DNA of 32,000 bases from Candidatus Auribacterota bacterium. Its GTDB lineage: Bacteria > Auribacterota > UBA6266. Positions 2,358 through 19,952 of this stretch are shown one piece after another. The DNA lies in NCBI GenBank assembly GCA_023136205.1, contig JAGLRQ010000040.1:57-32056 (forward strand). The letters run 5' to 3'. The translations under genes and the position numbers were made by a program. The notes beneath the pieces were generated by a model. That model had not been told where the DNA came from and did not search any database. It was given only the letters and a program-made list of their open reading frames with translations. Numbering within the stretch: position 1 is the stretch's first letter; the number at the start of each line of letters is the position of its first letter.

Positions 2358-3350
2358 ATGGGATTTTTAAAAAGGGAGAAATCTAAAACAGGATTAGTTC
2401 TGGGCAGCGGCGCAGCGCGGGGTTTAGCTCACATTGGAGTATTAAAGGCACTAAAAGAGCAAAATATATCTATTGATATGATAGCAGGCTCAAGTATGGG
2501 CGCGCTTGTTGGTGCCTGTTATGCAAGGCATGGAAAAATAATAGATATTGAAGAAATAGCATTAAGGATGGATTGGAAACAGTTAGCTCAATTAGCGGAT
2601 CCTAACTTAGCCCTGTTTTTCAAAGGAGTTATTCATGGTAAAAAGGTTAAAGACCTTCTAAAGACTTTAATAGGAGATGTAAATTTTAGGGACTTAAAGA
2701 TTCCTTTGGCTGTTGTGGCTACTGATGTTAATACAGGTGAGGAGATAGTCATAAAGACTGGTTCGGTAATTGACGCGGTAAGGGCGAGTATTTCTGTACC
2801 TGCTATATTTATGCCGGTTAAATTGAGAGATAGATTCCTGATAGATGGCGGGATAGTAAATCCCGTTCCAGTAACTGTAGTTAAAAATATGGGTGCAACA
2901 TTCATTATCGCTTGCAATGTAACCTATAAGCCCCAAAGAAGAAAACTTCTCAGATCTGCGAAAGGACAAAAATCCCCTGTGCCAATACCAAAGGCACAGA
3001 TTAAAAATGCAGCTTTAGTGACGTTAAATAACAAAATCGACAAACTTTTTCAAAACAATAAAGATAAGATACAAAGTTTCCAAAGACTTACTGATTCTTT
3101 CAAAAAAAAGATTTATAAAGGAAAACAAAGAATAGATCCAAATACGCCAAGCATATTTGATACTATATTAAAAGCAATTTATGCTATGGAATATGAGATA
3201 GCGAAGTCAAAAATGAAAGAGGCAGATGTTATAATAACCCCCGATACTGGACACATTGCTGCATTAGAGTTCTATCGGGCAAAAGAGGCGATAGCGGAGG
3301 GATACAAAGCAGCAAAAGACACCCTTTCTGAAAAGGGCCCTTCATTTTAA
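2358..3350 (+). CDS. Patatin-like phospholipase
   Basis: The ATG directly abuts the upstream stop codon. Contains the oxyanion GSGAARG motif, the nucleophile elbow GSSMG and the catalytic DGG (LIDGGIVNPVP), which define the patatin fold. Confidence 0.85.
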   Translation: MGFLKREKSKTGLVLGSGAARGLAHIGVLKALKEQNISIDMIAGSSMGALVGACYARHGKIIDIEEIALRMDWKQLAQLADPNLALFFKGVIHGKKVKDLLKTLIGDVNFRDLKIPLAVVATDVNTGEEIVIKTGSVIDAVRASISVPAIFMPVKLRDRFLIDGGIVNPVPVTVVKNMGATFIIACNVTYKPQRRKLLRSAKGQKSPVPIPKAQIKNAALVTLNNKIDKLFQNNKDKIQSFQRLTDSFKKKIYKGKQRIDPNTPSIFDTILKAIYAMEYEIAKSKMKEADVIITPDTGHIAALEFYRAKEAIAEGYKAAKDTLSEKGPSF

Positions 3351-3547
3351 AAGAGTATAGTAAAATGGAGGATAAGAAATGGGAACAGCTGTCCCTATCT
3401 CTTATTTTATGTTGGCTCCACAGTGTTTACGTGCCGCGGCAAACTACCCAAGATTGACTTCGATGGAATTTTCAGCTTTGCTACGATGGGCTCGATGGGA
3501 TGACGGAAGAGCGGGATATTATTAAAAAAAAATTCTGTAAAAAATTC

Positions 3548-3576
3548 TTGACAGATGCTTTTTTATAAGGTATAAA
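3548..3576 (+). promoter_or_regulatory. Sigma70-type promoter upstream of the amtB leader
   Basis: TTGACA (3548-3553), exactly 17 nt, then TATAAA (3571-3576). Confidence 0.5.
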
Positions 3577-3591
3577 GTACTTATTAAGTAC
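3577..3591. promoter_or_regulatory. Perfect palindrome GTACTTA-T-TAAGTAC overlapping the predicted transcription start (candidate operator)
   Basis: A 15-nt perfect inverted repeat immediately after the -10 hexamer. The GTAC...GTAC core recurs at 5853-5866 downstream of the glnN promoter. Confidence 0.35.
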
Positions 3592-3620
3592 AGAGATTGT
3601 GCTTGGAAGTTTTGCAATGG

Positions 3621-3645
3621 GGCGTTTGAGAGAGCGTCTTTTTTT
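3621..3645 (+). terminator. Intrinsic terminator-like hairpin T1 in the amtB upstream region
   Basis: GGCGUU / AGCGUC stem (two G-U pairs), loop UGAGAG, followed by U7 (3639-3645). Confidence 0.5.
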
Positions 3646-3693
3646 GTGTTTAGGCCGTGTAGTTTTTCAGAGTAGAATATTTTTGGATGACGA

Positions 3694-3739
3694 AGTCCTT
3701 TTAAGCAGAGATATTTGCTGAAGAGGGCTATTTTGTTTT
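3694..3739 (+). terminator. Long hairpin T2 plus U-rich tail in the amtB leader
   Basis: AGUCCUUUUAAGCA / UGCUGAAGAGGGCU forms 13 pairs with 1 mismatch and an 8-nt loop, followed by AUUUUGUUUU. Confidence 0.35.
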
Positions 3740-3761
3740 AAGCACGTTGTTGGTGCTTTAT

Positions 3762-3800
3762 TTGAGCTCAGGTGCTCAATTTAATGCCGTTGAAGGCATT
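3762..3800 (+). promoter_or_regulatory. Two adjacent 6-bp hairpins with hexaloops (antiterminator-like) in the amtB leader
   Basis: UUGAGC-UCAGGU-GCUCAA (3762-3779) and AAUGCC-GUUGAA-GGCAUU (3783-3800). Both loops have G at position 4. The 3' arm of the second hairpin is shared with terminator T3. Confidence 0.4.
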
Positions 3801-3818
3801 ATCTTGAGTGCCTTTTTT
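3793..3818 (+). terminator. Intrinsic terminator T3 immediately upstream of amtB
   Basis: AAGGCAUU / GAGUGCCUU stem (8 pairs including one G-U), loop AUCUUG, then a U-run to 3818. Its 5' arm overlaps the preceding hexaloop hairpin. Confidence 0.55.
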
Positions 3819-3857
3819 ATTTAGATGAATAAAAAACAAAGTAAAAAGGAGGGAAGA

Positions 3858-5198
3858 ATGAAGAAACTGTTTAAATTGCCTAAAAGCCTATTATTCATAC
3901 TGGTCTTTTTTACAGGAGGATATGTTTTCGCGGATGATACAGTCGCGTCTAACGCGACGGCGATAAATACCGTGTGGACATTGGTGGCGGCGTTCCTGGT
4001 ATTTTTCATGCAGCCGGGTTTTGCAATGGTTGAAACCGGTTTTACCAGAGCGAAGAACGCGGCGAATATCTTGATGAAAAATCTTATGGATTTTTCGATT
4101 GGCTCAATTGCCTTCTTTGTAATTGGGTTCGGGATAATGTTTGGAACGGATATGTTTGGCTTGTTTGGAACAGATGGTTTTTTCCTCAGTTCCGCGAACA
4201 CGACAAGCGGAGAAGGGATGTGGCAGTACGCGTACTGGATTTTCCAGGCGGTTTTTGCGGCTACAGCGGCAACCATTGTTTCCGGTGCGATGGCAGAAAG
4301 GACAAAATTTCCAGCATATCTAATCTATTCAGTCTTTATATGTGCTTTAATCTATCCCGTGGTAGGCCATTGGATATGGGGAGGCGGTTGGCTTGCCGCT
4401 AAAGGAATGATTGACTTTGCGGGTTCTACAGTTGTCCATTCTGTTGGAGGCTGGGCGGCTCTTGCGGGAGCTATACTTGTAGGCCCCAGGCTTGGTAAAT
4501 ACAACAAAGACGGGTCTTCAAACGCGATACCCGGGCATAACATACCGCTGGCAGCTCTTGGAGTGTTCATTCTCTGGTTTGGATGGTTTGGGTTTAACGC
4601 GGGCAGTACCACCGCGGGAACTGACTTGAGTATAGCTGTGATTGCCGTGACGACTAACCTTGCTGCCGCTGCCGGAGCGATAACAGCGATGATAACAGTC
4701 TGGATACAGTTTGGCAAACCTGATACCAGTATGGCTCTAAACGGGGCACTCGCCGGATTAGTCGCGATAACAGCTCCCTGCGCGAATGTTTCTCCGATCA
4801 GCGCGATTATAATAGGGGCTATTGCGGGCGTAATCGTTGTTTTGAGTGTGGAGTTTATTGACAAGGTTCTTCACATCGATGATCCCGTTGGCGCGATATC
4901 CGTGCACGGTGTGTGCGGCGCTTTCGGAACGCTGGCGGCAGGCCTTTTCGCGGAAGAAGCCTATGGTGGAGTAAACGGTTTGTTTTTTGGCGGCGGAATG
5001 GGCCAGTTTATTATCCAGGTCACAGGTGTTATTGCCGTATTTATATGGACATTTGGATCCGCGTGCGCTCTCTTTTATCTGGTAAAAAAGACTATGGGGC
5101 TTAGGGCTTCTGATCAAGAGCAGTTGAAAGGCCTGGATATCAGCGAGCATGGCATGGAATCTTACGCTGGGTTTCAGATATTCAGTACGGAAAATTAA
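3858..5198 (+). CDS. amtB: Ammonium transporter (Amt family)
   Basis: The ATG at 3858 is preceded by AAGGAGGG and was preferred over the ORF-track start at 3825. Signal-peptide-like N-terminus MKKLFKLPKSLLFILVFFTGGYVFA. Amt signatures are present: FMQPGFAMVETGF, DFAGSTVVHSVGGWAALAGAILVGPR, LWFGWFGFNAGS, GVHGVCGAFGTL. Confidence 0.9.
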   Translation: MKKLFKLPKSLLFILVFFTGGYVFADDTVASNATAINTVWTLVAAFLVFFMQPGFAMVETGFTRAKNAANILMKNLMDFSIGSIAFFVIGFGIMFGTDMFGLFGTDGFFLSSANTTSGEGMWQYAYWIFQAVFAATAATIVSGAMAERTKFPAYLIYSVFICALIYPVVGHWIWGGGWLAAKGMIDFAGSTVVHSVGGWAALAGAILVGPRLGKYNKDGSSNAIPGHNIPLAALGVFILWFGWFGFNAGSTTAGTDLSIAVIAVTTNLAAAAGAITAMITVWIQFGKPDTSMALNGALAGLVAITAPCANVSPISAIIIGAIAGVIVVLSVEFIDKVLHIDDPVGAISVHGVCGAFGTLAAGLFAEEAYGGVNGLFFGGGMGQFIIQVTGVIAVFIWTFGSACALFYLVKKTMGLRASDQEQLKGLDISEHGMESYAGFQIFSTEN

Positions 5199-5279
5199 AC
5201 GGATGTTTGGCGAGGCATGGGGCAGGTTTTTCCCCATGCCTCAAAAATGGAAGATTAATAAAAAGAAGGAGACTTTAAA

Positions 5280-5621
5280 ATGAAATTAATAATTGCTATG
5301 ATTCAGCCGCACAAACTTCCGGATGTAAAAAAAGCGCTTTTTGCTGCTGACGTACATAAAATGACTGTTACAAATGCTCTTGGATGCGGCCAGCAGAAAG
5401 GTTTCATGGAAGCTTACAGGGGGGTTATTCATGAAGTTAACCTTTTGAAAAAGGTAAAACTTGAAATCGCGGTGAACAAAGAATTTGTCCAGCCCACAGT
5501 TGATGCTATTATTAAAGGAGCCAGAACCGGCAAAATAGGGGACGGTAAGATATTTGTACTTGACTTGCCCACCTGCATAAGAATCAGGACAGGAGAAGAA
5601 GGGGGTATGGCTATTGGTTAA
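5280..5621 (+). CDS. glnK: P-II nitrogen regulatory protein, amtB-linked
   Basis: 113 aa, aligns end to end with GlnB/GlnK ([18 protein letters not shown]). SD AAGGAG upstream. Lies directly downstream of amtB. The T-loop has His, not Tyr, at position 51. Confidence 0.9.
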
Positions 5622-5802
5622 AAACCGGAAGGATTAACAGAATATATGCCAAGCTGGTGAAAGATAAGTTAAACCTGTAATATTTTTTTTTATTTGAGTT
5701 AACATTTGTATAAACACTTAAGGTTCACACGAGCAGTAGAAAACCGCGTTGGAAAGCATCAGGTAAGTGTGGAATTTTCGAAAGAAATAATATAGAATGA
5801 AC

Positions 5803-5831
5803 TTGACATATAGAAAAATGTATAGTAAAAA
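5803..5831 (+). promoter_or_regulatory. Sigma70-type promoter for the glnN-gltBD operon
   Basis: TTGACA (5803-5808), 17 nt, then TAAAAA (5826-5831). The -10 is weak. Confidence 0.45.
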
Positions 5832-5851
5832 GGACAACGATTTTGGAAATA

Positions 5852-5896
5852 GGTACAAAGTTGTACCGCCGGAAAAAAGATAACAAAGGCGTTCTT
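5852..5896 (+). promoter_or_regulatory. ANTAR-type dual hexaloop RNA element (P1 + P2) in the glnN leader
   Basis: P1 is GGUAC-AAAGUU-GUACC (5852-5867). P2 is GAUAAC-AAAGGC-GUUCUU (5879-5896, one U/C mismatch). Both hexaloops have A at position 1 and G at position 4, as in described ANTAR targets. The P2 3' half lies in the terminator 5' arm. Confidence 0.55.
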
Positions 5897-5927
5897 AAAC
5901 CTGCAGGGTTTTTGAGTGCCTTTTTTT
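5888..5927 (+). terminator. Intrinsic terminator in the glnN leader
   Basis: GGCGUUCUUAAACCU / GGGUUUUUGAGUGCC gives 13 of 15 pairs with loop GCA, followed by U7 (5921-5927). It lies 45 nt before the glnN start codon. Confidence 0.65.
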
Positions 5928-5971
5928 GTTTGTGTTTATGGAGCAAATAGTAAAATAATAGGAGATAAAAT

Positions 5972-8080
5972 ATGAGCAGGAAATCTGAACTGGACCCAGC
6001 AAAAGCGATAACAGAGATTTATGGTGAAAACGTGTTTAGCTTTAAAACAATGCGCAATTATCTTTCGGATAAGGCGATTAACTCTTTGAGAGAAACTATG
6101 GAGAAGGGAAAGTCACTAAATCCGGCCATTGCTGATGAAGTTGCCGATGCCATGAAAAACTGGGCGGTTTCAAAAGGGGCAACCCATTTTACTCATTGGT
6201 TTCAGCCTCTGACCGGGACAACGGCAGAAAAGCATGATTCCTTTATTGCCCCGGATTCTGAGGGAGGGGTAATACTTCAATTTTCAGGTAAAGAATTAAT
6301 TCAGGGAGAGCCCGATGCTTCAAGTTTTCCGTCCGGAGGATTAAGGACTACTTTTGAAGCAAGGGGATACACTGCATGGGACCCGACCAGCCCCGCATTT
6401 ATAAAAGAGGGAGAAAATGGGGCGACTCTCTGCATCCCGACCGTATTTTGCGGGTACCACGGCGATTCTCTGGATAAAAAAACTCCTCTACTGAGGTCTA
6501 TGGAAGCTTTATCAGAGCAGGTGTGCCGCTTAGGCAGGCTGTTTAAAATTAAAGATGGCGGAAGAAAAGCGTATGCGACTCTCGGAGCGGAACAGGAATA
6601 TTTTCTTATAGATAAGGCCTTTTATGAAAGCCGGCTTGACCTTATTCAAACGGGAAGAACAATATTTGGCAAAGCACCGGCAAAACACCAGCAAATGGAA
6701 GATCATTATTTTGGCGCCATTAAAGACAGGGTAATGTCTTTTATGGATGACCTTGACAGAGAATTATGGAAACTCGGGATTCCGTCGAAAACCCGCCATA
6801 ACGAGGTTTGTCCCGGCCAGTTTGAAGTCGCGGCTGTTTATGAAGGATTAAATTTGTCTGTTGACCATAACATGATGCTTATGGAAGTTCTGCGCAAGGT
6901 GGCTGAAGATCATGATTTTGTATGCCTTCTTCATGAAAAGCCGTTTGCCGGCGTTAATGGTTCGGGCAAACACAATAACTGGTCGATAAAAGGCCCGGAT
7001 GGTAAAAACTGGCTGAGCCCGGGGGATAACCCGCATGATAACGCGAAGTTTCTGACGTTGATTTGCGCGCTTATCAAGGCGGTGGATACTCACGCGGAGA
7101 TATTAAGAGCTTCGGTAGCTACCGCGGGTAATGATCACAGGCTTGGAGCTAACGAGGCGCCTCCCGCGATTTTATCAATTTTTCTTGGGGAACAATTAAC
7201 GGGTGTGATCGGCCAGATAGAAAGAGGTGAGACCAAAACTTCCAAGAGCGGCGGTTTTATAAAAATCGGGGTTTCTTCGCTTCCAACCCTTCCGAGAGAC
7301 GCGACCGACAGGAACAGGACATCGCCGTTTGCGTTTACCGGGAATAAGTTTGAGTTCCGCGCGGTAGGCTCAAACCAGAACTGTGCCGGCCCAAACATAG
7401 TATTAAACACGATTGTCGCGGCGGCTATTGATGATATTTGCGCTTCACTTGAAAAAGATGTTTCCGCGAAAAAAGATTTTAACAAATCTTTACAGAAAAT
7501 ACTGCAGAAGATAGTTAAAGAACATAAACGTATTTTATTTAATGGGGATAATTATACTGACGCGTGGCACGCGGAAGCAAAGAAGAGAGGGCTTCCTAAT
7601 CTAAAAACAACGCCTGAATCCTTAAAAATCCTCCTGGACGCGAAAACGGTTAAGCTTTTTGGAAAGTATAAGGTTTTATCAGAGAAAGAGCTTAAGTCCA
7701 GATTTGAGGTTTATCAAAAAGAGTATGATGAAATTATCCAGGTTGAATCGGAAGTAGCGGTAACAATAGCTAAGACACAGGTTATTAACGCGGCTTTGGA
7801 GTACCAGAGTGAATTGGCCGAAACCATCAATGCTGTTTCTAAGATCGACAGGAAAAACGCGTTAAAATCAACAAGGGGCCTGCTTTCTGACGTATGCGCA
7901 AAAACAGAGGGCGCTCTTGTTTCAATAAGCAGGCTTGAGAAAGCCATAAAGAAAGGTTCATCAAAGGAGAAAATCGCGGCCCTGGCGAAACTTCGGGAAT
8001 TTGTCGATGCTCTTGAAGGATTAGTTCCCGATGAAAAGTGGCCGCTCGCGACATATGCTGAAATGATGTTTATGATGTGA
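5972..8080 (+). CDS. glnN: Glutamine synthetase, type III
   Basis: 702 aa, the length class of GSIII. The N-terminus (FSFKTMRNYLS...ATHFTHWFQPLTG) and core (NEVCPGQFE, HEKPFAGVNGSGKHNNWS, RLGANEAPPAI, NRTSPFAFTGNKFEFRAVGS) match the Bacteroides-type GlnN family. SD GGAG upstream. Confidence 0.9.
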   Translation: MSRKSELDPAKAITEIYGENVFSFKTMRNYLSDKAINSLRETMEKGKSLNPAIADEVADAMKNWAVSKGATHFTHWFQPLTGTTAEKHDSFIAPDSEGGVILQFSGKELIQGEPDASSFPSGGLRTTFEARGYTAWDPTSPAFIKEGENGATLCIPTVFCGYHGDSLDKKTPLLRSMEALSEQVCRLGRLFKIKDGGRKAYATLGAEQEYFLIDKAFYESRLDLIQTGRTIFGKAPAKHQQMEDHYFGAIKDRVMSFMDDLDRELWKLGIPSKTRHNEVCPGQFEVAAVYEGLNLSVDHNMMLMEVLRKVAEDHDFVCLLHEKPFAGVNGSGKHNNWSIKGPDGKNWLSPGDNPHDNAKFLTLICALIKAVDTHAEILRASVATAGNDHRLGANEAPPAILSIFLGEQLTGVIGQIERGETKTSKSGGFIKIGVSSLPTLPRDATDRNRTSPFAFTGNKFEFRAVGSNQNCAGPNIVLNTIVAAAIDDICASLEKDVSAKKDFNKSLQKILQKIVKEHKRILFNGDNYTDAWHAEAKKRGLPNLKTTPESLKILLDAKTVKLFGKYKVLSEKELKSRFEVYQKEYDEIIQVESEVAVTIAKTQVINAALEYQSELAETINAVSKIDRKNALKSTRGLLSDVCAKTEGALVSISRLEKAIKKGSSKEKIAALAKLREFVDALEGLVPDEKWPLATYAEMMFMM

Positions 8081-8101
8081 TAAACGCAATAAAGCAGGCA
8101 A

Positions 8102-8136
8102 TTACGGCACCACGTTTAATGGTGCCGTAACTTTTG
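8102..8136 (+). terminator. Hairpin terminator between glnN and gltB
   Basis: 11-bp perfect stem UUACGGCACCA / UGGUGCCGUAA, 7-nt loop, tail CUUUUG. Only about 28 nt separate it from the gltB start, so read-through is probably needed for gltB expression. Confidence 0.6.
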
Positions 8137-8163
8137 TGTAAACGCTAAATAAAAATATTGATC

Positions 8164-11100
8164 ATGGAAGAGAATCAGTTTTTCAAGAAACAGGGGCTTT
8201 ACGATCCGCGGTTTGAGCATGACAGCTGCGGGGTCGGTTTTGTATGCAATGTTAAAGGTGAAAAAACCCATGAAATTATAGTCCAGGGGTTAAAGGTTTT
8301 AAAGCGCCTGTCACACCGCGGCGCGACAGGTTCGGATCCGGAGACCGGGGATGGCGCGGGAATTCTTATACAGATACCGCATGATTTTTTTGCCGGGGAG
8401 TGCGGTGAAATAAAAATAGATTTGCCTCCTCCCGGGAAATACGGGACAGGACTTATCTTTCTTCCTGTTGATAAAAAGGAACGTATTTTCTGCAAAAAGC
8501 TTTTCAGTAAAGCGGTTGAAGAATTGGGACAGAAAGTTCTTGGCTGGAGAGAAGTTCCTGTTAGTGAATCTGTTATAGGAAAAACCGCAAAGGAGATAAG
8601 GCCGGTAATAGAGCAAATATTTATTTCCCGTAACGAAAACATAAAAGATACGCTGGATTTTGAAAGAAAACTTTATTTAATAAGAAAACATGTTGAAAAT
8701 GTTATAAGAAGTTCGAAACTGAAGCAGAAGGCTTTTTTTTATATTACCAATATTTCCTGCCGTACCTTTATCTATAAAGGGCTTCTTATGCCTTCTCAGC
8801 TTGAAAGGTTCTTTCCTGATCTGGGAAATGAAAAGCTCGCAAGTTCGTTGTGTATTGTTCATTCAAGATACAGTACAAATACTTTTCCCTCCTGGGATTT
8901 ATCCCAGCCTTTCAGATTTCTTGCCCACAATGGTGAAATAAATACACTTCGCGGCAATGTTAATTGGATGCGGGCAAAGGAAGGGTTGTTAAACAGCAGT
9001 TATTTTGGGGAAGATGTTGAGAAAATAAAACCTGTAATTGTGCCCGGCGGCAGTGATTCCGCGGCTTTGGACAATGTTCTTGAACTGTTGGTCCTATCAG
9101 GCAGATCTTTGCCGCATGCCATGATGATGTTAATTCCTTCAGCCTGGGAACAGGACGCGTTTATGGACGAGAAGCTTAGGGCTTTTTATCAGTACCATGC
9201 ATGCCTGATGGAGCCATGGGATGGCCCCGCGGCTATTGCTTTTACAGATGGAACTTGTCTGGGCGCGTTTCTTGACAGGAACGGGCTCAGGCCCGCGAGG
9301 TATATTATCACGAAAAATGATTTATTAGTCATGGCTTCAGAGGTTGGTGTTCTTGATATAGATCCCGGTGACATTAAGGTTTCAGGGAGGCTTGAACCCG
9401 GCAAGATGCTTTATGTAGATACCGAAAAAAAGAAAGTAGTGGATAATAAAGAGCTGAAAGAAGAAATTTCTTTAGGGAAACCCTATGATAGCTGGCTTAA
9501 AAAAAATATGGCCAGAATCGAAGATTTGCCTGAACCGATTTATAACAAAAGCGGAAATAAAGATGTTATTCCTCTTCTCAAAGCATTTGGTTATACAAGA
9601 GAAGATTTGAAATTTATCATTAAGCCCATGGCCGAAAATGGGGGAGAAGCCATAGGCTCTATGGGTAATGATACTCCGCACGCGGTTCTGTCCAAGAGGC
9701 CGCAGCTTGTTTATAATTATTTTAAACAATTGTTTGCACAGGTGACAAATCCGCCTATTGACCCTATACGGGAAGAACTTGTCATGAGCCTGGAATGCTA
9801 TATGGGAACGAGAAGGAATCTTCTTGACGAAACACCATTACATTGCGGCAAACTGAAGCTTAAACATCCTATACTTTCAAACGCGGATTTGGAAAAGATC
9901 AGGAAAATTAATCAAAAAGGATTTTGTTCAAAAACAATTTCGATTCTTTTTAAAGCTAAAGATGAAAGCTCTTTTCAAGAAGCTCTTGAGAGAATTTGTC
10001 TTGAAGCTGCCGCGGCTATAGAAGGAAACAATACTTTTATAATTTTAAGTGACAGAGGTGTGAATAAGGATTATGCCGCCATACCGGCATTAATAGCTGT
10101 GGGAGCTGTTCATCAGTACCTGGTCAAGCAAGGATCCCGATCCCAGATTGCCCTAATTGTAGAGAGTGGGGAGCCAAGGGATGTCCATCATTTTTCCCTC
10201 CTGTTCGCGTTTGGCGCGGGCTGTGTTAACCCATATATGGCGTTTGATTCTGTTGAATATATGATTAGGGAAGGTATGCTGGATACCGAAATAGAAATGG
10301 CAAATAAAAATTATATCAACGCGCTTAAGAAAGGTATATTAAAAATTCTTTCAAAAATGGGTATCTCAACTTTACGAAGTTACAGGGGAGCGCAAATATT
10401 TGAAGCACTCGGTTTAAATAAAGAAATTATAGAGAAATGTTTTACCGGGACAGTGTCTCGTATTGAGGGGGCAGGTATGGAGGTAATCGCGAAGGAAACC
10501 TTGATCCGGCACAGAGATGCTTATTGCGTAAGAGGCGAGAATTCTAACCTGCTGCCTGCTGGAGGCGTTTATCAATGGAAGAAAGACGGTGAATTCCACC
10601 TGTGGAATCCGGAAAGCATTGCTGCTCTCCAGGATGCGGCGAAACATGATGATTACGATAAATATGAAGAGTTTTCTTGTTTGATCAATGATCAGTCAAA
10701 CAACCCCGCGACTTTAAGAAGTTTATGGAAATTCAAAAAGGTTAACCCTGTTGCGATAGATGAAGTTGAGTCAATACATAATATTTTTGGCCGGTTTGTT
10801 ACGGGTGCTATGAGCTTTGGCTCAATAAGTAAGGATGCCCATGAAAGTATTGCCCTTGCGATGAACAGGATTGGGGGAAAATCCAACACCGGCGAAGGAG
10901 GGGAGGATCCGTCAAGATTTGTATCTCTGCGCAGCGGACATTCAAAAAGAAGCGCGATAAAACAGGTTGCCTCCGGCAGATTCGGTGTTTCAACAAACTA
11001 TCTGGTTAATGCTGATGAAGTACAGATAAAAATCGCTCAGGGGGCTAAGCCGGGTGAAGGAGGCCAGCTTCCGGGCCATAAGGTTAGTGTGACAATAGCA

Positions 11101-12693
11101 AGCACGAGATATACTACTCCGGGTGTGACACTTATTTCACCACCGCCTCATCATGACATATATTCGATTGAAGATCTTGCACAGCTGATTTTTGATCTGA
11201 AAAATGTAAATCCGAGAGCCCGGATAAGTGTAAAACTTGTGTCTGAAATCGGAGTTGGAACTGTCGCGGCAGGCGTCGCGAAAGGACGCGCGGATATGAT
11301 TCTGATCTCCGGCAGTGATGGCGGGACAGGAGCATCTCCGCGAAGCTCAATAATGCACGCGGGCCTTCCGTGGGAACTTGGCCTGTCAGAAACTCATCAA
11401 ACCCTCGTTTTAAATAATCTTCGCAGCAGAGTAGTTTTGCAGACTGACGGACAAATAAGAACCGGAAGGGATGTTGCTATAGCGGCTCTTCTTGGCGCGG
11501 AGGAGTATGGAATTTGTTCTGCCTGTCTGGTTATTCTTGGTTGTGTGATGTTAAGACATTGCCATTTAAATAACTGTTCTATGGGTGTAGCCACTCAAGA
11601 TCCTATTTTACGGAGCAGGTTTCGCGGAAGGCCGGAATACATTGTTACCTATATGAACTTTGTTGCCCAGGAACTTCGCGAGATCATGGCTTCTCTTGGA
11701 ATAAGAAACCTGGACGACATGATTGGCCGGACGGATTTATTGGAAGTAAACAAAGATATAATTCCATGGAAAGCTTCACAGATTGATTTTTCAAATATTC
11801 TGTATAAACCTGATATTAAAGAGGGAGTAGGTACGTTTTGTAAAAAAAGGCAAAATCATGGTATTGATAATGTTCTTGATCGCAGGCTTATCAAACTGGC
11901 GCGCAGAAGTTTGTTGAACAGGGAACAGATACGCGAAGAGATTAGCATTTGCAATACTGATAGATCTACCGGAGCAATGTTGAGTGGGGAAATTTGCAGG
12001 ATTTACGGCGAAGAAGGTTTCCCGAACGACACTATTTATTTTAAATTCACTGGTGTGGCAGGCCAGAGTTTCGGAGCCTGGCTTACAAAGGGTGTTACTT
12101 TTGAACTGGAAGGTATAACCAATGATTACGTAGGCAAAGGTATTTCAGGAGGGAAGATAATTATTTATCCGGATAGACGTTCTAAATACAAGGCTCACGA
12201 AAATATTATAGTAGGCAATACAAGTTTTTATGGAGCTATAAGCGGTGAGGCATACATAAGAGGTATCGCCGGTGAAAGATTTTGCGTTAGGAATTCGGGA
12301 GTTAATGCTGTTGTTGAGGGTGTTGGGGATCACGGCTGTGAATACATGACGGGTGGGAGAATTGTGATATTGGGAAAAACCGGTAGAAATTTTGCCGCGG
12401 GCATGTCGGGGGGTATCGCGTATGTATTTGATGAAGACAACATGATTGAAAGTAGATGCAATATAAATATGGTTAACATTGATGTGGTTGATGATGAGGA
12501 TGAGGCAGCGATACATGAACTTGTTCATAATCATTATAAATATACTCAAAGCGAAAAGGCAAAAATGATTTTGGGGGATTTTAAGAAGAGTTTGAAAAGT
12601 TTCGTTAAGGTAATTCCCGTTGAGTATAAGCGGATTTTGGAAACTAAAAAAACAGATGAAAAATTGGGGTTAACAGAGATATCCGATGGGTGA
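8164..12693 (+). CDS. gltB: Glutamate synthase large subunit
   Basis: About 1509 aa. Has the N-terminal Ntn amidotransferase Cys (EHDSCGVGFV), FMN/Fe-S central and GXGXG C-terminal domains (GAMSFGSIS, SNTGEGGE, LISPPPHHDIYSIEDL, GGTGASP). The start could alternatively be TTG at 8158. Confidence 0.95.
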   Translation: MEENQFFKKQGLYDPRFEHDSCGVGFVCNVKGEKTHEIIVQGLKVLKRLSHRGATGSDPETGDGAGILIQIPHDFFAGECGEIKIDLPPPGKYGTGLIFLPVDKKERIFCKKLFSKAVEELGQKVLGWREVPVSESVIGKTAKEIRPVIEQIFISRNENIKDTLDFERKLYLIRKHVENVIRSSKLKQKAFFYITNISCRTFIYKGLLMPSQLERFFPDLGNEKLASSLCIVHSRYSTNTFPSWDLSQPFRFLAHNGEINTLRGNVNWMRAKEGLLNSSYFGEDVEKIKPVIVPGGSDSAALDNVLELLVLSGRSLPHAMMMLIPSAWEQDAFMDEKLRAFYQYHACLMEPWDGPAAIAFTDGTCLGAFLDRNGLRPARYIITKNDLLVMASEVGVLDIDPGDIKVSGRLEPGKMLYVDTEKKKVVDNKELKEEISLGKPYDSWLKKNMARIEDLPEPIYNKSGNKDVIPLLKAFGYTREDLKFIIKPMAENGGEAIGSMGNDTPHAVLSKRPQLVYNYFKQLFAQVTNPPIDPIREELVMSLECYMGTRRNLLDETPLHCGKLKLKHPILSNADLEKIRKINQKGFCSKTISILFKAKDESSFQEALERICLEAAAAIEGNNTFIILSDRGVNKDYAAIPALIAVGAVHQYLVKQGSRSQIALIVESGEPRDVHHFSLLFAFGAGCVNPYMAFDSVEYMIREGMLDTEIEMANKNYINALKKGILKILSKMGISTLRSYRGAQIFEALGLNKEIIEKCFTGTVSRIEGAGMEVIAKETLIRHRDAYCVRGENSNLLPAGGVYQWKKDGEFHLWNPESIAALQDAAKHDDYDKYEEFSCLINDQSNNPATLRSLWKFKKVNPVAIDEVESIHNIFGRFVTGAMSFGSISKDAHESIALAMNRIGGKSNTGEGGEDPSRFVSLRSGHSKRSAIKQVASGRFGVSTNYLVNADEVQIKIAQGAKPGEGGQLPGHKVSVTIASTRYTTPGVTLISPPPHHDIYSIEDLAQLIFDLKNVNPRARISVKLVSEIGVGTVAAGVAKGRADMILISGSDGGTGASPRSSIMHAGLPWELGLSETHQTLVLNNLRSRVVLQTDGQIRTGRDVAIAALLGAEEYGICSACLVILGCVMLRHCHLNNCSMGVATQDPILRSRFRGRPEYIVTYMNFVAQELREIMASLGIRNLDDMIGRTDLLEVNKDIIPWKASQIDFSNILYKPDIKEGVGTFCKKRQNHGIDNVLDRRLIKLARRSLLNREQIREEISICNTDRSTGAMLSGEICRIYGEEGFPNDTIYFKFTGVAGQSFGAWLTKGVTFELEGITNDYVGKGISGGKIIIYPDRRSKYKAHENIIVGNTSFYGAISGEAYIRGIAGERFCVRNSGVNAVVEGVGDHGCEYMTGGRIVILGKTGRNFAAGMSGGIAYVFDEDNMIESRCNINMVNIDVVDDEDEAAIHELVHNHYKYTQSEKAKMILGDFKKSLKSFVKVIPVEYKRILETKKTDEKLGLTEISDG

Positions 12694-14107
12694 TCCAAAA
12701 GGGTTTTTAAAAGTTAAACGGCAGGCTTCAGATTTCAGGCCTGTCTGTGAACGTGTTAAAGATTATAAGGAGGTATTTCAAATACCCTCCGATAAGAAAT
12801 CGATGGAACAGGCATCCCGCTGTATGGATTGCGGGACCCCTTTTTGTAATTGGGGTTGTCCTGTCGGAAACTATATCCCGGAATGGAATGATTTTATGTT
12901 CCACGGACATTGGGAAAAGGCATATAGACTTCTTGACGCGATGAACAATTTGCCGGAAATAACCGGGAGAGTTTGCCCGGCCGCGTGTGAATACGCGTGT
13001 GTGCTGGGAGCAAATGATGATCCGGTAACTGTAAGGGAAAACGAGCTTGCGATTATTGAGTATGCTTTTAAAAAAGGATTTGTAAAACATAGAGTATGCG
13101 GATCCAGAACCGGTAAAAGAATTGCTGTTGTGGGTTCAGGCCCGGCAGGAATCTCGAGCGCGGATCAACTTAACAGATATGGCCATAGTGTTGTCGTTTT
13201 TGAAAAAGCTGAAAAGATAGGGGGTATACTAAGATATGGAATTCCTGATTTTAAGCTTGAAAAGTGGATTTTAGACAGACGTATAAACATCTTAAAAAAA
13301 GAAGGAATTAAGTTTATTACCGGTGTTAATGTTGGAATTGATTATGGAGTTCCTAAGCTGCTTAAAGAATTTGATGCTGTTTGTCTTGCCGGTGGTTCCC
13401 GGGTTCCCAGAGATTTAAAGATAGAAGGAAGGGGCCTAAAAGGCATTCATTTCGCGATGGATTATTTGACACAGCAGAATAAAAGGGTTTCAGGGGAAAA
13501 CTTTTCGGAAGATTTAATAGATGCAAAGGGTAGAAAGGTAGTTGTTATTGGCGGCGGGGATACCGGTTCGGATTGTGTTGGAACGGCACATAGGCAGGGA
13601 GCAAATTGTGTTGTTCAGATAGAGATTATGCCAAAGCCGGAGGGGTGCCGTACTGATGACTACCCCTGGCCGTCTTATCCAATGATATTAAAAACGTCCA
13701 CCAGCCATGAAGAAGGGGGAGAAAGGTATTGGTCTCTATTAACTAAAAATTTTACAGGTAAAAATGGCAGGGTTAGCAAGATTATATGCAAGAAGGTTGA
13801 ATTCTCTAAGGCCGATAAAAAAGGCTGTTCATTAATGAAAGAAATACCGGACAGCGAGTTTGAAATTGATGCCGGCCTTGTAATAATTGCCGCGGGTTTC
13901 TTACATGCTTCTCATGGCGGGCTGGTTGATAATCTGGGTGTTGAAAAAGATGAGCGTGGAAATGTAAAAACCAATGAAAATTTTATGACTTCCATAAAAA
14001 ATGTTTTTTCTGCCGGCGATATGAGAAGGGGCCAGTCTCTTGTTGTATGGGCTATTAATGAAGGCAGAAGATGCGCGGAAGCAATTGATAAATTTCTTTT
14101 AGGGTAA
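12686..14107 (+). CDS. gltD: Glutamate synthase small subunit (NAD(P)H-dependent)
   Basis: ATG overlaps the gltB stop (ATGGGTGA). Has the Fe-S Cys clusters (CMDCGTPFC, CPVGN, CPAACEYAC) and dinucleotide folds (VAVVGSGPAG, VVVIGGGDTGSDC). Confidence 0.9.
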   Translation: MGDPKGFLKVKRQASDFRPVCERVKDYKEVFQIPSDKKSMEQASRCMDCGTPFCNWGCPVGNYIPEWNDFMFHGHWEKAYRLLDAMNNLPEITGRVCPAACEYACVLGANDDPVTVRENELAIIEYAFKKGFVKHRVCGSRTGKRIAVVGSGPAGISSADQLNRYGHSVVVFEKAEKIGGILRYGIPDFKLEKWILDRRINILKKEGIKFITGVNVGIDYGVPKLLKEFDAVCLAGGSRVPRDLKIEGRGLKGIHFAMDYLTQQNKRVSGENFSEDLIDAKGRKVVVIGGGDTGSDCVGTAHRQGANCVVQIEIMPKPEGCRTDDYPWPSYPMILKTSTSHEEGGERYWSLLTKNFTGKNGRVSKIICKKVEFSKADKKGCSLMKEIPDSEFEIDAGLVIIAAGFLHASHGGLVDNLGVEKDERGNVKTNENFMTSIKNVFSAGDMRRGQSLVVWAINEGRRCAEAIDKFLLG

Positions 14108-14118
14108 GGTGTGTTTAT

Positions 14119-16734
14119 ATGGATGAGAACTTTAGTACAGGACTTCCGGATTTGGATAGTATTTTACGGGGGATATGTCCGGGTGATAATGTCGTTTTCC
14201 AGGTAGATACTGTAGGGGATTATATTCCATTTGTCCATCCTTTCTGCGAAAAGGCTCATATGCAGGGCCGGGATCTAATTTATTTTCGCTTTGCCGATCA
14301 CGAGTATCTTATTCCTAAGGGTGTTTCTGCTCATGTTTATGAAATTCATCCGGAGGCCGGCTTTGAAAAATTTATTGCCGAAATTTTTGATGTTATTGAA
14401 AAATTCGGTTATGGCGCCTGTTATGTTTTTGATTCTCTTTCCGAGCTTGCGGTTGACTGGTACAGTGACCGTATGCTGGGAAACTTCTTTATGCTTACGT
14501 GTCCTTATCTATATACCTTTGATACGGTCGCGTATTTCGGGCTTTTAAGGAATCATCATTCTTCATATGCCGTTGATGCCATACACAGCACCGCGCAGGT
14601 GGTTCTTGATATTTATCGTAGAAAAAGCGAATTTTATGTCTATCCTCTTAAAGTATATGAGCGGCATTCTAAAACAATGTATATGCCTCATAAGTGGGAT
14701 GGTGACAGGTTTATTCCGGAAGTAAGGAGCGCGGCAATCGCGGAGATACTCGGGTCAGTTTCCCACCCGTGGCTTGATTTTACGATAAACCGTTATGATA
14801 TCTGGGCCCGAAGCTTTACAGAAGCGCAGGAGATTGTTGACTCGGGCGCTAACGAAAAGCCGAAAGACTCGAGACAAAAAACCCTGTTTAGCCGCCTTAT
14901 CCGAATGGTGGTTTCAAGAGACCCGCGGGTTCTGTCTCTTATAGAGAAATATTTTAACCTGAAAGATGTGGTTAATATAGGAAAACGGATGATAGGTACA
15001 GGCCTGATCGGCGGCAAATCTCTCGGGATGCTGCTTGCGCGGTCTATAGTGAAGAATCAAGATAAAGATTTACATGACAAACTTGAATATCACGATTCGT
15101 TTTTTATCGGGTCGGATGTATTTTATACGTATATTATTGAAAACGGCTGCTGGTGGGCAAGGCGCGGAATAAAAAGAGAGGGTACATCCTTTAATGGGTT
15201 TATGGAAGTCAGACAACGTATGCTTTCCGGTAAGTTCCCGGACTACATTAAAAATCAATTTATTGAGATGCTCGATTATTTTGGGCAGTCTCCCATTATA
15301 GTCAGGTCTTCAAGCCTTCTTGAGGATGCGTATGGAAACGCTTTTTCCGGAAAGTACGAGAGTGTTTTTTGCGCGAATCAGGGAACACCCGAAGAACGTC
15401 TGGAGAAATTTATAGAAGCTGTTAGAATAGTCTATACGAGCACAATGAGCAAAGAGGCGATAGCTTACCGGGCGCGCTGGAACCTGCTGGATCGAGATGA
15501 ACAAATGGCTATTTTAGTACAGAGGGTTTCTGGCTCTATATATGGGGATCAGTATTTTCCTCAGGTTGCGGGTGTTGGGTTTTCATTTAATCCCTATGTA
15601 TGGAGCAATGAAATTAAACCGGAAGAAGGAATGATCCGTCTGGTTTTTGGTTTGGGGACCCGGGCTGTTGACAGAAGCGGCGATGATTATACACGGCTGG
15701 TGGCTTTAAATTCGCCGGACAGACGCCCGGAAGGAAGCCTTGCGGATGTTAGAAAATACTCTCAGCATCGTGTGGATGTTCTTGACTTACATGATAACCG
15801 TTATGTAACGAAAGATTTTGAGGAGGTAGTGCGGGGAGCTCCTGAATTTGACCCTAAGATGTTTGCTTCCCGCGATAAGGAAGTTGAAAGGAAAGCCAGA
15901 GAATACGGAACAAAAAATGTGTTCTCATGGGTTTTGACTTTTGACGAGCTTTTATCAGGCACAGGGTTTGTCGGGGATATGGGGAAAATGCTTAAGATTC
16001 TTCAAAAAGCTTATAATCATCCCGTGGATGTGGAATTCACGGCGAATTTTCTGGACGGTTGGCAGGATTATAATATAAACCTGCTTCAATGCAGGCCGTT
16101 TCAGATAAAAGGAAATCTGCGGAAAGTCAAGGCCCCGGTATCTATAAAGGACGAGCAGGTATTGCTGAAAACAAGAGGGCCGATTATCGGCAGCAGTATT
16201 TCTACGACAGTTGACAGAATTATTTATGTTGTTCCTGAAGTTTATAGTAAAATGAAGATAACAGACAGATATTCCGTTGCTCGTTTAATCGGACGAATTA
16301 CCCATCTCAAAGACAAGGGGAAAATACCCAAAATTATGCTTATCGGCCCGGGGAGGTGGGGAACCACCACGCCTTCTTTAGGTGTGCCCGTTTCATTTGC
16401 GGAGATAGATACCGTTTCTGTTATATGTGAAGTCGCGGCTATGGATGAAAACCTGATTCCGGATATATCTCTGGGAACGCATTTTTTTAATGACCTTGTT
16501 GAGGTAGATATGTTATATCTTGCTGTTTTTCCGGATAAAAAAGACAGCGCGATAAACAGATGTTTTTTTAATAACACTAAAAATAAGCTGGCTTCTTTGA
16601 TACCTGTTGAAAAATTATTTTCTCAGGCTGTAAAAGTAATAGATTCCGACAGTATTGAATCAGGCCGGCCGATGTGCCTGAACGCGGATGTCCTTGAACA
16701 AAAAGGAATCTGCTATCTAGATGTTAAAAAATAA
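14119..16734 (+). CDS. PEP/pyruvate-binding (PPDK_N ATP-grasp) domain protein with a degenerate KaiC/RecA-like N-terminal domain
   Basis: Starts 11 nt after gltD. The N-terminus GLPDLDSILRGICPGDNVVF...YVFDSLSEL resembles KaiC/RadA-like ATPases but lacks a GKT/S Walker A. The centre (IIVRSSSLLEDAYGNAFSGKYESVF, AILVQR, GVGFSFNP, VFGLGTRAVD) matches the nucleotide-binding domain of pyruvate-phosphate/water dikinases. No phospho-His swivel motif was seen. Confidence 0.7.
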   Translation: MDENFSTGLPDLDSILRGICPGDNVVFQVDTVGDYIPFVHPFCEKAHMQGRDLIYFRFADHEYLIPKGVSAHVYEIHPEAGFEKFIAEIFDVIEKFGYGACYVFDSLSELAVDWYSDRMLGNFFMLTCPYLYTFDTVAYFGLLRNHHSSYAVDAIHSTAQVVLDIYRRKSEFYVYPLKVYERHSKTMYMPHKWDGDRFIPEVRSAAIAEILGSVSHPWLDFTINRYDIWARSFTEAQEIVDSGANEKPKDSRQKTLFSRLIRMVVSRDPRVLSLIEKYFNLKDVVNIGKRMIGTGLIGGKSLGMLLARSIVKNQDKDLHDKLEYHDSFFIGSDVFYTYIIENGCWWARRGIKREGTSFNGFMEVRQRMLSGKFPDYIKNQFIEMLDYFGQSPIIVRSSSLLEDAYGNAFSGKYESVFCANQGTPEERLEKFIEAVRIVYTSTMSKEAIAYRARWNLLDRDEQMAILVQRVSGSIYGDQYFPQVAGVGFSFNPYVWSNEIKPEEGMIRLVFGLGTRAVDRSGDDYTRLVALNSPDRRPEGSLADVRKYSQHRVDVLDLHDNRYVTKDFEEVVRGAPEFDPKMFASRDKEVERKAREYGTKNVFSWVLTFDELLSGTGFVGDMGKMLKILQKAYNHPVDVEFTANFLDGWQDYNINLLQCRPFQIKGNLRKVKAPVSIKDEQVLLKTRGPIIGSSISTTVDRIIYVVPEVYSKMKITDRYSVARLIGRITHLKDKGKIPKIMLIGPGRWGTTTPSLGVPVSFAEIDTVSVICEVAAMDENLIPDISLGTHFFNDLVEVDMLYLAVFPDKKDSAINRCFFNNTKNKLASLIPVEKLFSQAVKVIDSDSIESGRPMCLNADVLEQKGICYLDVKK

Positions 16735-16752: not shown

Positions 16753-17460
16753 ATGAAAGAAAATGAGAAACAGCTTGAAGCCCTGTTTAAAATAAGCAAG
16801 GCGATTGCTTCAGATAATTATCTTGAAGACATTCTTAAACTTATAGTCGCGGTTACCGCCCAGGTGATGAACTCAAATATATGTACTTTAATGCTTATTG
16901 ACGAGCGAAAGAAAGAGCTTACAATACGGGCAACCCAGAGCGTAAGTGATGAATATAATAAAAAACCCCCAATTAAAATAGGCGAAGGGATTTCAGGCAA
17001 GGTCGCGAAAGAAAACAAGCCAATTTCAGTAAAAGATGTCGGTTTGGAAAAAGAATACAAATATCATGATATGGCTAAAAATGAGGGTTTAAAGTCTCTG
17101 CTTTGTGTGCCTCTTACGGTTAAGGGAAAGGTTATAGGCGTTATAAATTGTTATACTCCGGTCCCTCATGAATTTTCTTACGGCGAAATCAATATCCTCA
17201 AGACTATAGCCCATCAGGCCGCTGTCGCGATTGAAAACACCGAACTTATGGTAAAAACTAGGGTTATACAGGAAGAGCTTGAATCAAGAAAAAGAATCGA
17301 AAGAGCAAAGGGCATGTTGATGGAAGAAGAAAAATTGACAGAGCAGGAAGCCTATAACAAGATACAAAAGTTTGCCATGGATAACCGCAAAACCATGAAG
17401 GAAATAGCGGAAGCGATGATTCTGGCATATGATATGAGGCAGGGAAAAAAGAAAAAATAA
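16753..17460 (+). CDS. GAF-ANTAR RNA-binding transcription antiterminator
   Basis: Starts 18 nt after the upstream gene. GAF domain at about residues 10-165 (GEGISGKVA, LCVPL..GKVIGVINCY, AHQAAVAIEN). C-terminal ANTAR helices: LESRKRIERAKGMLMEEEKLTEQEAYNKIQKFAMDNRKTMKEIAEAMI. Confidence 0.85.
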   Translation: MKENEKQLEALFKISKAIASDNYLEDILKLIVAVTAQVMNSNICTLMLIDERKKELTIRATQSVSDEYNKKPPIKIGEGISGKVAKENKPISVKDVGLEKEYKYHDMAKNEGLKSLLCVPLTVKGKVIGVINCYTPVPHEFSYGEINILKTIAHQAAVAIENTELMVKTRVIQEELESRKRIERAKGMLMEEEKLTEQEAYNKIQKFAMDNRKTMKEIAEAMILAYDMRQGKKKK

Positions 17461-17520
17461 AATTGGACGCAGAGAACGCAGAGAAAAAACATAAAGTAGA
17501 TTTTAAAAACCTCATTTTTT

Positions 17521-17550
17521 AACCACAAATGAACACAAATCGACACAAAT
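17521..17550 (-). repeat. 30-nt tri-decamer repeat (ACACAAATNN x3), left island boundary copy
   Basis: The reverse complement ATTTGTGTCGATTTGTGTTCATTTGTGGTT matches 27397-27426 at 26 of 30 positions. The adjacent GACGCAGAGAACGCAGAGAA (17466-17485) is also internally repetitive. Confidence 0.6.
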
Positions 17551-17567
17551 TAAAAACAATAGAGAAA

Positions 17568-17595
17568 TAAGAAAAGGGAGTTGACCCCCTTTTCC
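17568..17595 (+). repeat. Hairpin-forming direct repeat, copy A (TAAGAAAAGGGAGTTGACCCCCTTTTCC)
   Basis: Identical to 19632-19658 apart from one extra C. GAAAAGGG pairs with CCCTTTTC as an 8-bp stem. Confidence 0.7.
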
Positions 17596-17623
17596 ACCCC
17601 CTTTTTCCAGACCCCCTTTTCCA
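17585..17623 (+). repeat. Tandem repeat CCCCCTTTTCCA x3 (middle unit expanded)
   Basis: Units lie at 17585-17596, 17597-17611 and 17612-17623, read directly from the sequence. Confidence 0.6.
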
Positions 17624-18144: not shown

Positions 18145-18206
18145 AGTTGCTTCTTACTGGTTAAAAGAGATCTGCCGCCCCGAAATTAAATATCAGGAGA
18201 ATTATA

Positions 18207-19845: not shown

Positions 19846-19877
19846 ATTCTGGGATATGGTGAAATAATAACTATCAT

Positions 19878-19938: not shown

Positions 19939-19952
19939 GATTGAGGTGATAT

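Follow-up and report, generated by a model that had tools for sequence, protein, structure and literature searches.

A probable ANTAR-type attenuator in the leader of a type III glutamine synthetase gene of an uncultured bacterium

Introduction

A 32,000-nucleotide stretch of contig JAGLRQ010000040.1 (assembly GCA_023136205.1, Candidatus Auribacterota bacterium; hereafter the window) carries on its + strand, in the first 17.5 kb, a nitrogen-assimilation cluster recognisable with Pfam. One gene of the cluster, glnN, encodes a type III glutamine synthetase (GSIII) and is preceded by a leader in which two short hairpins adjoin a predicted intrinsic terminator. The locus thus raises the question of what this leader does and which protein acts on it. 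Here we present a computational analysis of the window and of related loci, according to which the leader is very probably an ANTAR-type transcription attenuator that works by the standard ANTAR model, and its likely regulator is a one-component GAF-ANTAR protein encoded in the same locus.

Antitermination by EutV needs both hairpins of its substrate, the residues A1 and G4 of their six-nucleotide loops (hexaloops) and AC/GU closing pairs (PMC3369931). Within the ANTAR dimer each domain contacts a single hexaloop individually (Walshe et al. 2022, PMC8934654). Published substrates have A/U-rich linkers between the two hairpins, 5-12 nucleotides (nt) long in the eut leaders of Enterococcus faecalis, and Ramesh et al. 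2012 described, for many bacteria, ANTAR elements that overlap terminators 5′ of the genes for P-II, ammonium transporter, glutamate synthase and glutamine synthetase (PMC3369931).

Results

Anatomy and folding of the glnN leader

The leader and the gene that it precedes comprise the following features.

5803 to 5831, + strand: putative sigma-70-type glnN promoter, TTGACA (5803-5808), 17-nt spacer, TAAAAA (5826-5831), read from the sequence
5852 to 5867, + strand: P1 hairpin, GGUAC-AAAGUU-GUACC, 5 base pairs (bp), hexaloop with A1/G4 (sequence, RNAfold)
5868 to 5878, + strand: P1-P2 linker, GCCGGAAAAAA, 11 nt (sequence)
5879 to 5896, + strand: P2 hairpin, GAUAAC-AAAGGC-GUUCUU, 3 bp, a U·C mismatch and 2 bp, hexaloop with A1/G4; the putative antiterminator element
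5885 to 5927, + strand: predicted intrinsic terminator, 16-bp stem (5885-5923) and U7 (5921-5927), from the RNAfold minimum free energy structure
5972 to 8080, + strand: glnN, type III glutamine synthetase, the regulated gene (Pfam GSIII_N, Gln-synt_C, Gln-synt_C-ter)

The original prediction, made from the letters of the DNA, had placed a TTGACA-17-TAAAAA promoter and two hairpins with A1/G4 hexaloops ahead of glnN; all are present with the sequences claimed, P2 having the one internal mismatch listed above. Transcription is predicted to start at about 5838-5840, some 12-14 nt before P1. A consensus promoter scan of the window omitted this promoter, the -10 hexamer of which, TAAAAA, has no T at position 6. 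An alternative -10 hexamer, TATAGT at 5821-5826, was dropped, as its spacer would be 12 nt.

P1, with the loop residues A5857 and G5860, is stable by itself (-6.5 kcal/mol) and fits both the published P1 consensus, SYAC-AAHGRH-GUDB, and the covariance model R1 described below. P2, with the loop residues A5885 and G5888, has a folding energy of +0.9 kcal/mol when taken alone and is therefore unstable unless something (a protein) holds it. The terminator had been predicted with a U7 tract 45 nt before the start codon, which is indeed its distance from the glnN ATG (5972), and with a stem of 15 positions, in place of which RNAfold gives 16 pairs, 10 + 6 with a 2x2 internal loop between them, and the U tract takes part in the outermost three, which are A-U pairs. 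The 5′ arm of this stem (5885-5902) contains the loop and the 3′ half of P2 (5885-5896). Since these residues form the base of the arm, P2 and the terminator are mutually exclusive, here with a weak P2 and a strong terminator, which is the canonical ANTAR layout that had been proposed. The minimum free energy structure forms the terminator (-25.0 kcal/mol for the segment 5845-5930, RNAfold), and the 141-nt leader as a whole folds at -33.2 kcal/mol, compared with -23.8 +/- 2.9 kcal/mol in shuffles (z = -3.2).

Tests against chance

Loosely defined pairs of hexaloop hairpins (A..G.. in both loops) are frequent by chance in the A-rich window, with 27 on the + strand and 3 more, mostly intragenic. 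The core AC-AAWGKY-GU, said to be shared by the four hairpins of the glnN leader and of a second leader, that of gdhA, is found in all four: ACAAWGKYGT occurs exactly four times in the window (5855, 5883, 31548 and 31581) against 0.35 expected, a comparison that is circular, the pattern having been derived from those sites. The non-circular evidence of significance therefore comes from R1, a covariance model that we made from 30 non-redundant ANTAR substrates (Ramesh 2012, Fig. S2) trimmed to P1, linker and P2 and aligned, with 3 + 3 base pairs modelled and no window sequence included.

A covariance-model search with the published motif had been suggested as a check on the original prediction. 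Both strands of the window were searched with R1 (64 kb of search space, filters off), and the two leaders came out on top: the gdhA leader at rank 1 (31546-31591, 23.8 bits, E 7e-4) and the glnN leader at rank 2 (5853-5893, 22.2 bits, E 1.5e-3), followed by 31422-31463 (9.6 bits, E 1.2), where the E-values are rough, coming from a shortened calibration, and the 12-bit gap over background is independent of that calibration. In 88 kb of sequence from glnN loci that have no ANTAR gene close by (Pontiella, two Fibrobacter and Akkermansia), all R1 matches stayed below 12 bits, the maximum being 11.5. A script that looked for hairpins with terminators in 80 loci gave noisy output and failed to pick up the gdhA site, where the terminator swallows P2; neither it nor the scan for loose hexaloop pairs is used as evidence.

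Further elements in the window

Two other leaders in the window carry an element or a candidate for one.

31545 to 31623, + strand: second element, in the gdhA leader, with P1, P2 and terminator (fold; best R1 match in the window)
3613 to 3647, + strand: possible third, degenerate element in the amtB-glnB leader, a hexaloop hairpin overlapping a terminator

The gdhA leader named in the original prediction (31503-31686, + strand) lies at the far end of the window. The gene that follows starts with TTG at 31687 and continues beyond the window; over its first 104 residues the product is the N-terminus of an NADP-specific glutamate dehydrogenase (NF006929, E 4.5e-47). P1 is CGCAC-AAUGGU-GUGCG (31545-31560) and P2 is GAGAC-AAAGGU-GUCCC (31578-31593), and a 16-bp terminator (31578-31617) followed by a U tract takes in the entire P2. 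Because the neighbouring gene, for NAD synthase, is transcribed divergently, this terminator cannot serve an upstream gene.

The amtB-glnB leader (3549-3830) is about 280 nt long and has a TTGACA-17-TATAAA promoter and two intrinsic terminators. The first of these, short and followed by U7, begins with the 3′ half of the hairpin UGC-AAUGGG-GCG (terminator 3619-3640, hairpin 3613-3624, loop with A1/G4). The leader is without an A1/G4 P1, the hairpin upstream, GUACUU-AUU-AAGUAC (3579-3593), having no hexaloop. The second terminator (about 3772-3815, with a U tract) has a 5′ arm overlapped by UUGAGC-UCAGGU-GCUCAA (3763-3780; loop with U1/G4) and a 3′ arm, UUGAGUGCCUUUUUU, identical to that of the glnN terminator. 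R1, a dual-hairpin model, gave no match in this leader, and we keep the site only as a possible degenerate element.

The GAF-ANTAR protein and its locus

The nitrogen-assimilation cluster contains, besides glnN, the following genes.

3825 to 5198, + strand: amtB (Pfam)
5280 to 5621, + strand: P-II gene, glnB (Pfam)
8158 to 12693, + strand: gltB (Pfam)
12686 to 14107, + strand: gltD (Pfam)
14119 to 16734, + strand: 871-residue protein with a PPDK_N (phosphoenolpyruvate (PEP)-utilising, ATP-grasp) domain (Pfam)
16753 to 17460, + strand: 235-residue one-component GAF-ANTAR protein, candidate cognate antiterminator (Pfam GAF_2, 1e-22, and ANTAR)

The gene for the GAF-ANTAR protein lies four genes 3′ of glnN, as the last of the string gltB-gltD-PPDK_N-ANTAR. 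Its product scores 67.8 bits with Pfam ANTAR (cutoff 27.3), and PDB matches to this part of the protein lie in the ANTAR regions of the chains 1s8n, 6wsh, 4akk (NasR) and 1qo0 (AmiR). Among family models, the GAF domain matches best those for the N-terminal GAF domains of PtsP (enzyme I-Ntr; NF008283, E 1.5e-19) and NifA (TIGR01817, E 8e-14), and its best PDB matches include the PtsP GAF structures 3trc and 3ci6. An exact-sequence look-up of the protein returned the same species only, in loci that stop short of the glnN leader.

Within 8102-8140, between glnN and gltB, lies a terminator-like hairpin (8102-8130; 11 bp, 6 of them G-C) followed by CUUUUGUGU and without the hexaloop motif. Because of this hairpin, glnN may be transcribed largely alone, with partial read-through into gltBD and the PPDK_N and ANTAR genes.

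Conservation in the closest relative

The nearest syntenic relative, L167 (GCA_023228325.1), encodes a GlnN 76% identical to that of the window. Its gene order is amt, P-II, amt, glnN, gltB, gltD, then Ogg and rubrerythrin genes (27476-28689 in the window), and directly after gltD, before Ogg and rubrerythrin, it has an uncalled GAF-ANTAR orthologue, also 76% identical. The glnN leaders of the two loci align from the -35 hexamer through the U tract, with promoter, P1, P2 and terminator all kept and both promoter hexamers identical.

An alignment of orthologous leaders had been named beforehand as a way to look for compensatory changes, and the L167 leader contains them in P1 and in the terminator. 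Its hairpins are GCAC-AGGGUU-GUGC (P1) and AAAAC-AGAGGC-GUUCUU (P2). Pair 3 of P1 is U-A in the window and C-G in L167, and one terminator pair is U·G in the window and A-U in L167; two further terminator changes are one-sided and preserve pairing (G-U/A-U and U-G/U-A), and no inner pair is disrupted. Loop positions 2-3 differ in L167, A1/G4 are unchanged in both loops, and the inner pairs of P2 are conserved. The leader of the L167 amt operon (5480-5670) has three hexaloop hairpin-terminator units, analogous to the unit in the amtB leader of the window.

Elements in wider relatives

Pattern scans of genome and metagenome contigs with GlnN supplied relatives of at most 69% identity, the named ones being mostly Candidatus Omnitrophota; the closer GlnN relatives (76% and 73%) came from a homologous-protein search and contig look-ups. 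Ten loci besides L167 (L001, L002, L006, L081, L085, L087, L168, L169, L170 and L171) have a GAF-ANTAR gene beside glnN, 47-58% identical to that of the window; overall, eleven related loci, mostly Candidatus Omnitrophota-like, have an orthologue of 47-76% identity right next to glnN or gltD. Nine of the ten further loci (all but L171), or ten of the eleven with L167, contain hexaloop hairpins in which the 3′ half forms the start of an intrinsic terminator, and the loops have A1/G4 in nearly all cases and G1 in a few. The elements were found in these leaders.

glnN leader: L002, L081, L085, L087, L168 and L170
amtB leader: L006, L087 and L170
Leader of gltB, or of the helix-turn-helix gene before gltB: L087 and L168
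Leader of the ANTAR gene itself: L087
carB leader: L001
gdhA leader: L169 and L170

The P2-type hairpins with terminator in the gdhA leaders read GGAC-AAAGGU-GUUC in L169 and GGAC-AAUGGU-GUUC in L170, compared with GAGAC-AAAGGU-GUCCC in the window. R1 gave seven matches of 12-17 bits in L087, all of them in leaders and on the coding strand, the next reaching 5.6 bits, and matches of 23.9, 18.0 and 15.2 bits in L168. In L171 the only R1 match, of 12.9 bits, is at 351-398, within a DNA methylase gene and not in a leader. L172 has a GAF-sigma54 activator in place of the ANTAR gene and no hexaloop element, and altogether five loci that lack an ANTAR gene are free of such elements. In the sequences compared, the RNA motif and the ANTAR gene thus travel together.

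In L001, an Omnitrophota metagenome-assembled genome, the region 4200-4352 between the GAF-ANTAR gene and the next gene holds an element with two hairpins, GGUAC-AAUGAUA-GUAUC and then GGAC-AAAGAC-GUUC, with a terminator. That next gene, which from our own reading we take to encode the large subunit of carbamoyl-phosphate synthase (carB), suggests that the regulon reaches the synthesis of arginine/pyrimidine precursors in some relatives.

Units made of a single A1/G4 hexaloop hairpin and a terminator are also seen in relatives (L087 15816-16110 and 18738-18990; L167 5480-5670). Some leave no room for P1, the hairpin beginning about 10 nt after the predicted start, and the units are stacked, with three in tandem in the amt leaders of L087 and L167 and two in L006. 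Such units are unlike the canonical P1-P2 layout and fit a 2022 proposal in which the minimal ANTAR site is one hexaloop.

The regulator also varies among the relatives. In four loci the gene immediately 5′ of that for GAF-ANTAR encodes a stand-alone GAF protein of about 165 residues, which shares 27-30% identity with the GAF part of the GAF-ANTAR protein.

8625 to 9128 of L002: stand-alone GAF gene
5821 to 6306 of L006: stand-alone GAF gene
8481 to 8978 of L081: stand-alone GAF gene
3801 to 4298 of L085: stand-alone GAF gene

L171 encodes a fused GAF-GAF-ANTAR protein of 410 residues, and the window species has the single-GAF form only.

Other features of the window

The 871-residue protein encoded between gltD and the GAF-ANTAR gene has PPDK_N (PEP synthase / pyruvate phosphate dikinase ATP-binding) as its sole recognised domain, at residues 296-675. 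The gene is absent from this place in L167; homologues adjoin glnN in L172 (874 residues, opposite strand) and in L157 (partial, 50% identical), a recurrent association with GSIII. Just 3′ of the ANTAR gene, at 17575-17625, are three close direct repeats of a CCCCCUUUU(U)CCA-like sequence (gacccccttttccaccccctttttccagacccccttttccatc).

A stretch of about 10 kb, 17461-27475, has no counterpart in L167 and looks like an inserted island. It contains an open reading frame (ORF) for a Cys-rich 92-residue product (about 17866-18144) beside a radical SAM/SPASM enzyme (18207-19634), a pair resembling those for ribosomally synthesised and post-translationally modified peptides, as well as an AbiEi/AbiEii toxin-antitoxin pair (19953-21813), and it also encodes a DUF5677 protein, a class-3 lipase and a 443-residue protein (AF_1680 in the contig annotation).

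Discussion

In its anatomy, its energetics, the mutual exclusivity of P2 and the terminator, its fit to published substrates, its conservation and its co-occurrence with an ANTAR gene, the glnN leader has the properties of the ANTAR dual-hexaloop antiterminator family in every test of membership that can be computed. We infer from this that an ANTAR protein binds the leader. The locus-encoded GAF-ANTAR protein is the likely regulator, because its gene is adjacent in twelve loci, the window included.

According to the standard model, the nascent RNA would by default fold into the strong terminator at 5885-5927, and the polymerase would stop 45 nt before glnN. With the regulator active, an ANTAR dimer would bind the hexaloops at A5857/G5860 of P1 and A5885/G5888 of P2 and would hold the otherwise unstable P2 closed. 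Closed P2 would sequester 5885-5896, needed for the base of the 5′ arm of the terminator, and so would allow read-through into glnN. The gdhA leader is a further predicted target of this GAF-ANTAR protein, and the amtB-glnB leader a possible one; together with glnN these would make up a small nitrogen-assimilation regulon. The GAF domains of PtsP and NifA respond to glutamine and/or 2-oxoglutarate. Because the GAF domain described here resembles theirs, a nitrogen-status metabolite, such as 2-oxoglutarate or glutamine, is at most a reasonable guess for the signal that it might sense.

Another ANTAR protein, with its gene in some other part of the genome, might instead act on the attenuator, for example a receiver-ANTAR protein like EutV or GnfR of Geobacter, the local GAF-ANTAR protein being unrelated or only partly responsible. 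The visible genome amounts to 32 kb, within which the ANTAR gene lies some 11 kb from the leader; moreover, ANTAR domains are reportedly not specialised by protein architecture (PMC7496416), and RNA sequence alone cannot assign the partner. We nevertheless give this reading a small chance, since the GAF-ANTAR orthologues keep their place beside glnN or gltD in the eleven related loci, element-bearing as described above, since elements immediately flank the ANTAR gene in L087, L168 and L001, and since no second ANTAR protein was seen in any locus examined.

The hairpin at 5885-5927 could also be a mere terminator of the amtB-glnB operon, with the hexaloop hairpins as chance features of an A-rich intergenic region. 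There is no convincing terminator between the glnB stop (5621) and 5885, and loose hexaloop pairs are common on the + strand, as noted above. This explanation is very unlikely in view of the conserved promoter between glnB and the hairpins and of the R1 score of the glnN site, 12-13 bits above all background matches; furthermore, the gdhA leader has the same arrangement without a co-directional upstream gene, the element is kept in L167 with pair-preserving changes, and the same architecture recurs in many leaders of relatives. Glutamine-responsive riboswitches and other cis-acting RNAs precede nitrogen genes in some phyla, so that a protein-independent switch (a metabolite riboswitch, a T-box or attenuation by a leader peptide) might be considered as well. 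It appears least likely of all: Rfam 15 gave no match in the window at gathering thresholds, nor in 3300-8200 at E up to 10 apart from a spurious miRNA match; the leader, in which a mere 90 nt or so separate the predicted start and the U tract, consists of two 5-bp-class hairpins with no larger fold; and no ORF was seen in it 5′ of the terminator.

Several observations weigh against an ANTAR attenuator in the glnN leader, or against parts of the regulon proposed for it. P2 closes with AC/GU and not with GC/GC as in the published P2 consensus, and has an internal mismatch. The E-values of R1 are rough, as stated. Covariation with the one close orthologue found for the leader has no statistical power, 127 of 500 shuffles reaching the observed values, and the 19 hand-picked hairpins of relatives, with varied stems and invariant A1/G4, were picked by eye for their stems, which makes their pairing statistics partly circular and of little weight. 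No upstream terminator was seen for the amtB-glnB operon, and the terminator at 5885-5927 may also serve that operon. With the ANTAR gene about 11 kb 3′ of the leader, and the hairpin at 8102-8130 between glnN and gltB, autoregulation is only a possibility. Finally, the glutamine synthetase-glutamate synthase (GS-GOGAT) pathway and glutamate dehydrogenase (GDH) are usually regulated reciprocally, and switching them on together would be physiologically unusual and is somewhat unexpected; despite this, the association of gdhA with the element recurs in L169 and L170.

Compared with known systems, the ANTAR-type leader of glnN is most readily set beside the eut leaders controlled by EutV/EutW in Enterococcus faecalis and Listeria. 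Both have two short A1/G4 hexaloop hairpins, an A/U-rich linker and a P2 whose 3′ half is shared with the terminator, and both close P1 with AC/GU (GGUAC-AAAGUU-GUACC in the window, GGUAC-AAAGGC-GUACUG in eutG of L. monocytogenes). They differ in the closing pairs of P2, in the regulator (a phosphorylated receiver-ANTAR protein there, a one-component GAF-ANTAR protein here), in the genes controlled (ethanolamine use there, ammonium assimilation here) and in the host, which is a Firmicute there and an uncultured Omnitrophota-like bacterium here. NasR at nasF of Klebsiella oxytoca and AmiR at amiE of Pseudomonas aeruginosa are likewise ANTAR proteins that regulate nitrogen-source genes, NasR as a one-component protein and AmiR with a protein partner; their leaders have A1/G4 hexaloop hairpins beside a terminator, and the ANTAR domain of the window matches their structures (4akk, 1qo0). 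Their sensor domains are NIT or pseudo-receiver, in place of GAF, and their targets serve nitrate or amide utilisation, whereas those proposed here are core assimilation genes. In Geobacter sulfurreducens, the ANTAR regulator of the GnfK/GnfR system described by Ueki and Lovley in 2010 is said to control nitrogen-fixation genes by antitermination; this system is reportedly two-component (a histidine kinase and a receiver-ANTAR protein) and under sigma-54 control, unlike the single GAF-ANTAR protein and sigma-70-like promoters of the window.

The nitrogen regulons predicted by Ramesh et al. for Desulfotomaculum acetoxidans / D. reducens, Carboxydothermus, Alkaliphilus and others (Ramesh 2012, Fig. 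9 and Table S2) come close to the one proposed here: their substrates overlap terminators 5′ of nitrogen genes, the ANTAR gene is often in the same cluster, and there are several sites per genome. These regulons are predictions, none of them tested with a GAF-ANTAR protein; they belong mainly to Firmicutes and Proteobacteria, and glutamate dehydrogenase is not named in Table S2, in contrast to the gdhA sites of the window, L169 and L170. Glutamine synthetase is mentioned 25 times in Table S2, with 11 mentions of glutamate synthase, 18 of ammonium transporter and 0 of glutamate dehydrogenase (PMC3369931). The glnN leader is thus a good new example of a known mechanism, and the mechanism itself is not new; the novelty of the leader is lowered because ANTAR elements 5′ of glutamine synthetase genes were already catalogued in 2012, and its value is incremental. 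What is particular to the window is the GAF-ANTAR partner, the gdhA target and the lineage.

In this locus a GAF-ANTAR protein and its probable RNA targets form a clean, well-conserved pair. In a 2020 paper on NasR, PAL and NasR are the only one-component ANTAR proteins named as characterised (PMC7496416), and a 2025 review mentions GAF only as a domain type, neither describing a characterised GAF-ANTAR protein. Being short and canonical, the leaders would lend themselves as substrates to a search for the GAF ligand. Glutamate dehydrogenase and, in one relative, carbamoyl-phosphate synthase join the predicted ANTAR nitrogen regulon, and in a candidate phylum of which few members are in culture, RNA-level control seems to be the principal layer of nitrogen regulation that can be seen.

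A wider and more speculative possibility, which we consider rather doubtful as it stands, is that the one-component GAF-ANTAR protein is the master nitrogen regulator of this Omnitrophota-like lineage. It would sense a metabolite directly (2-oxoglutarate or glutamine being suggested) and control amtB-glnB, glnN, gltBD, gdhA and, in relatives, carB by antitermination, replacing the control of initiation by NtrC, GlnR or TnrA. If true, the large and uncharacterised class of GAF-ANTAR proteins would thereby receive its first assignment of a function and a ligand. The relatives would add a variant architecture, the tandem single hexaloop hairpin with terminator that has no room for P1.

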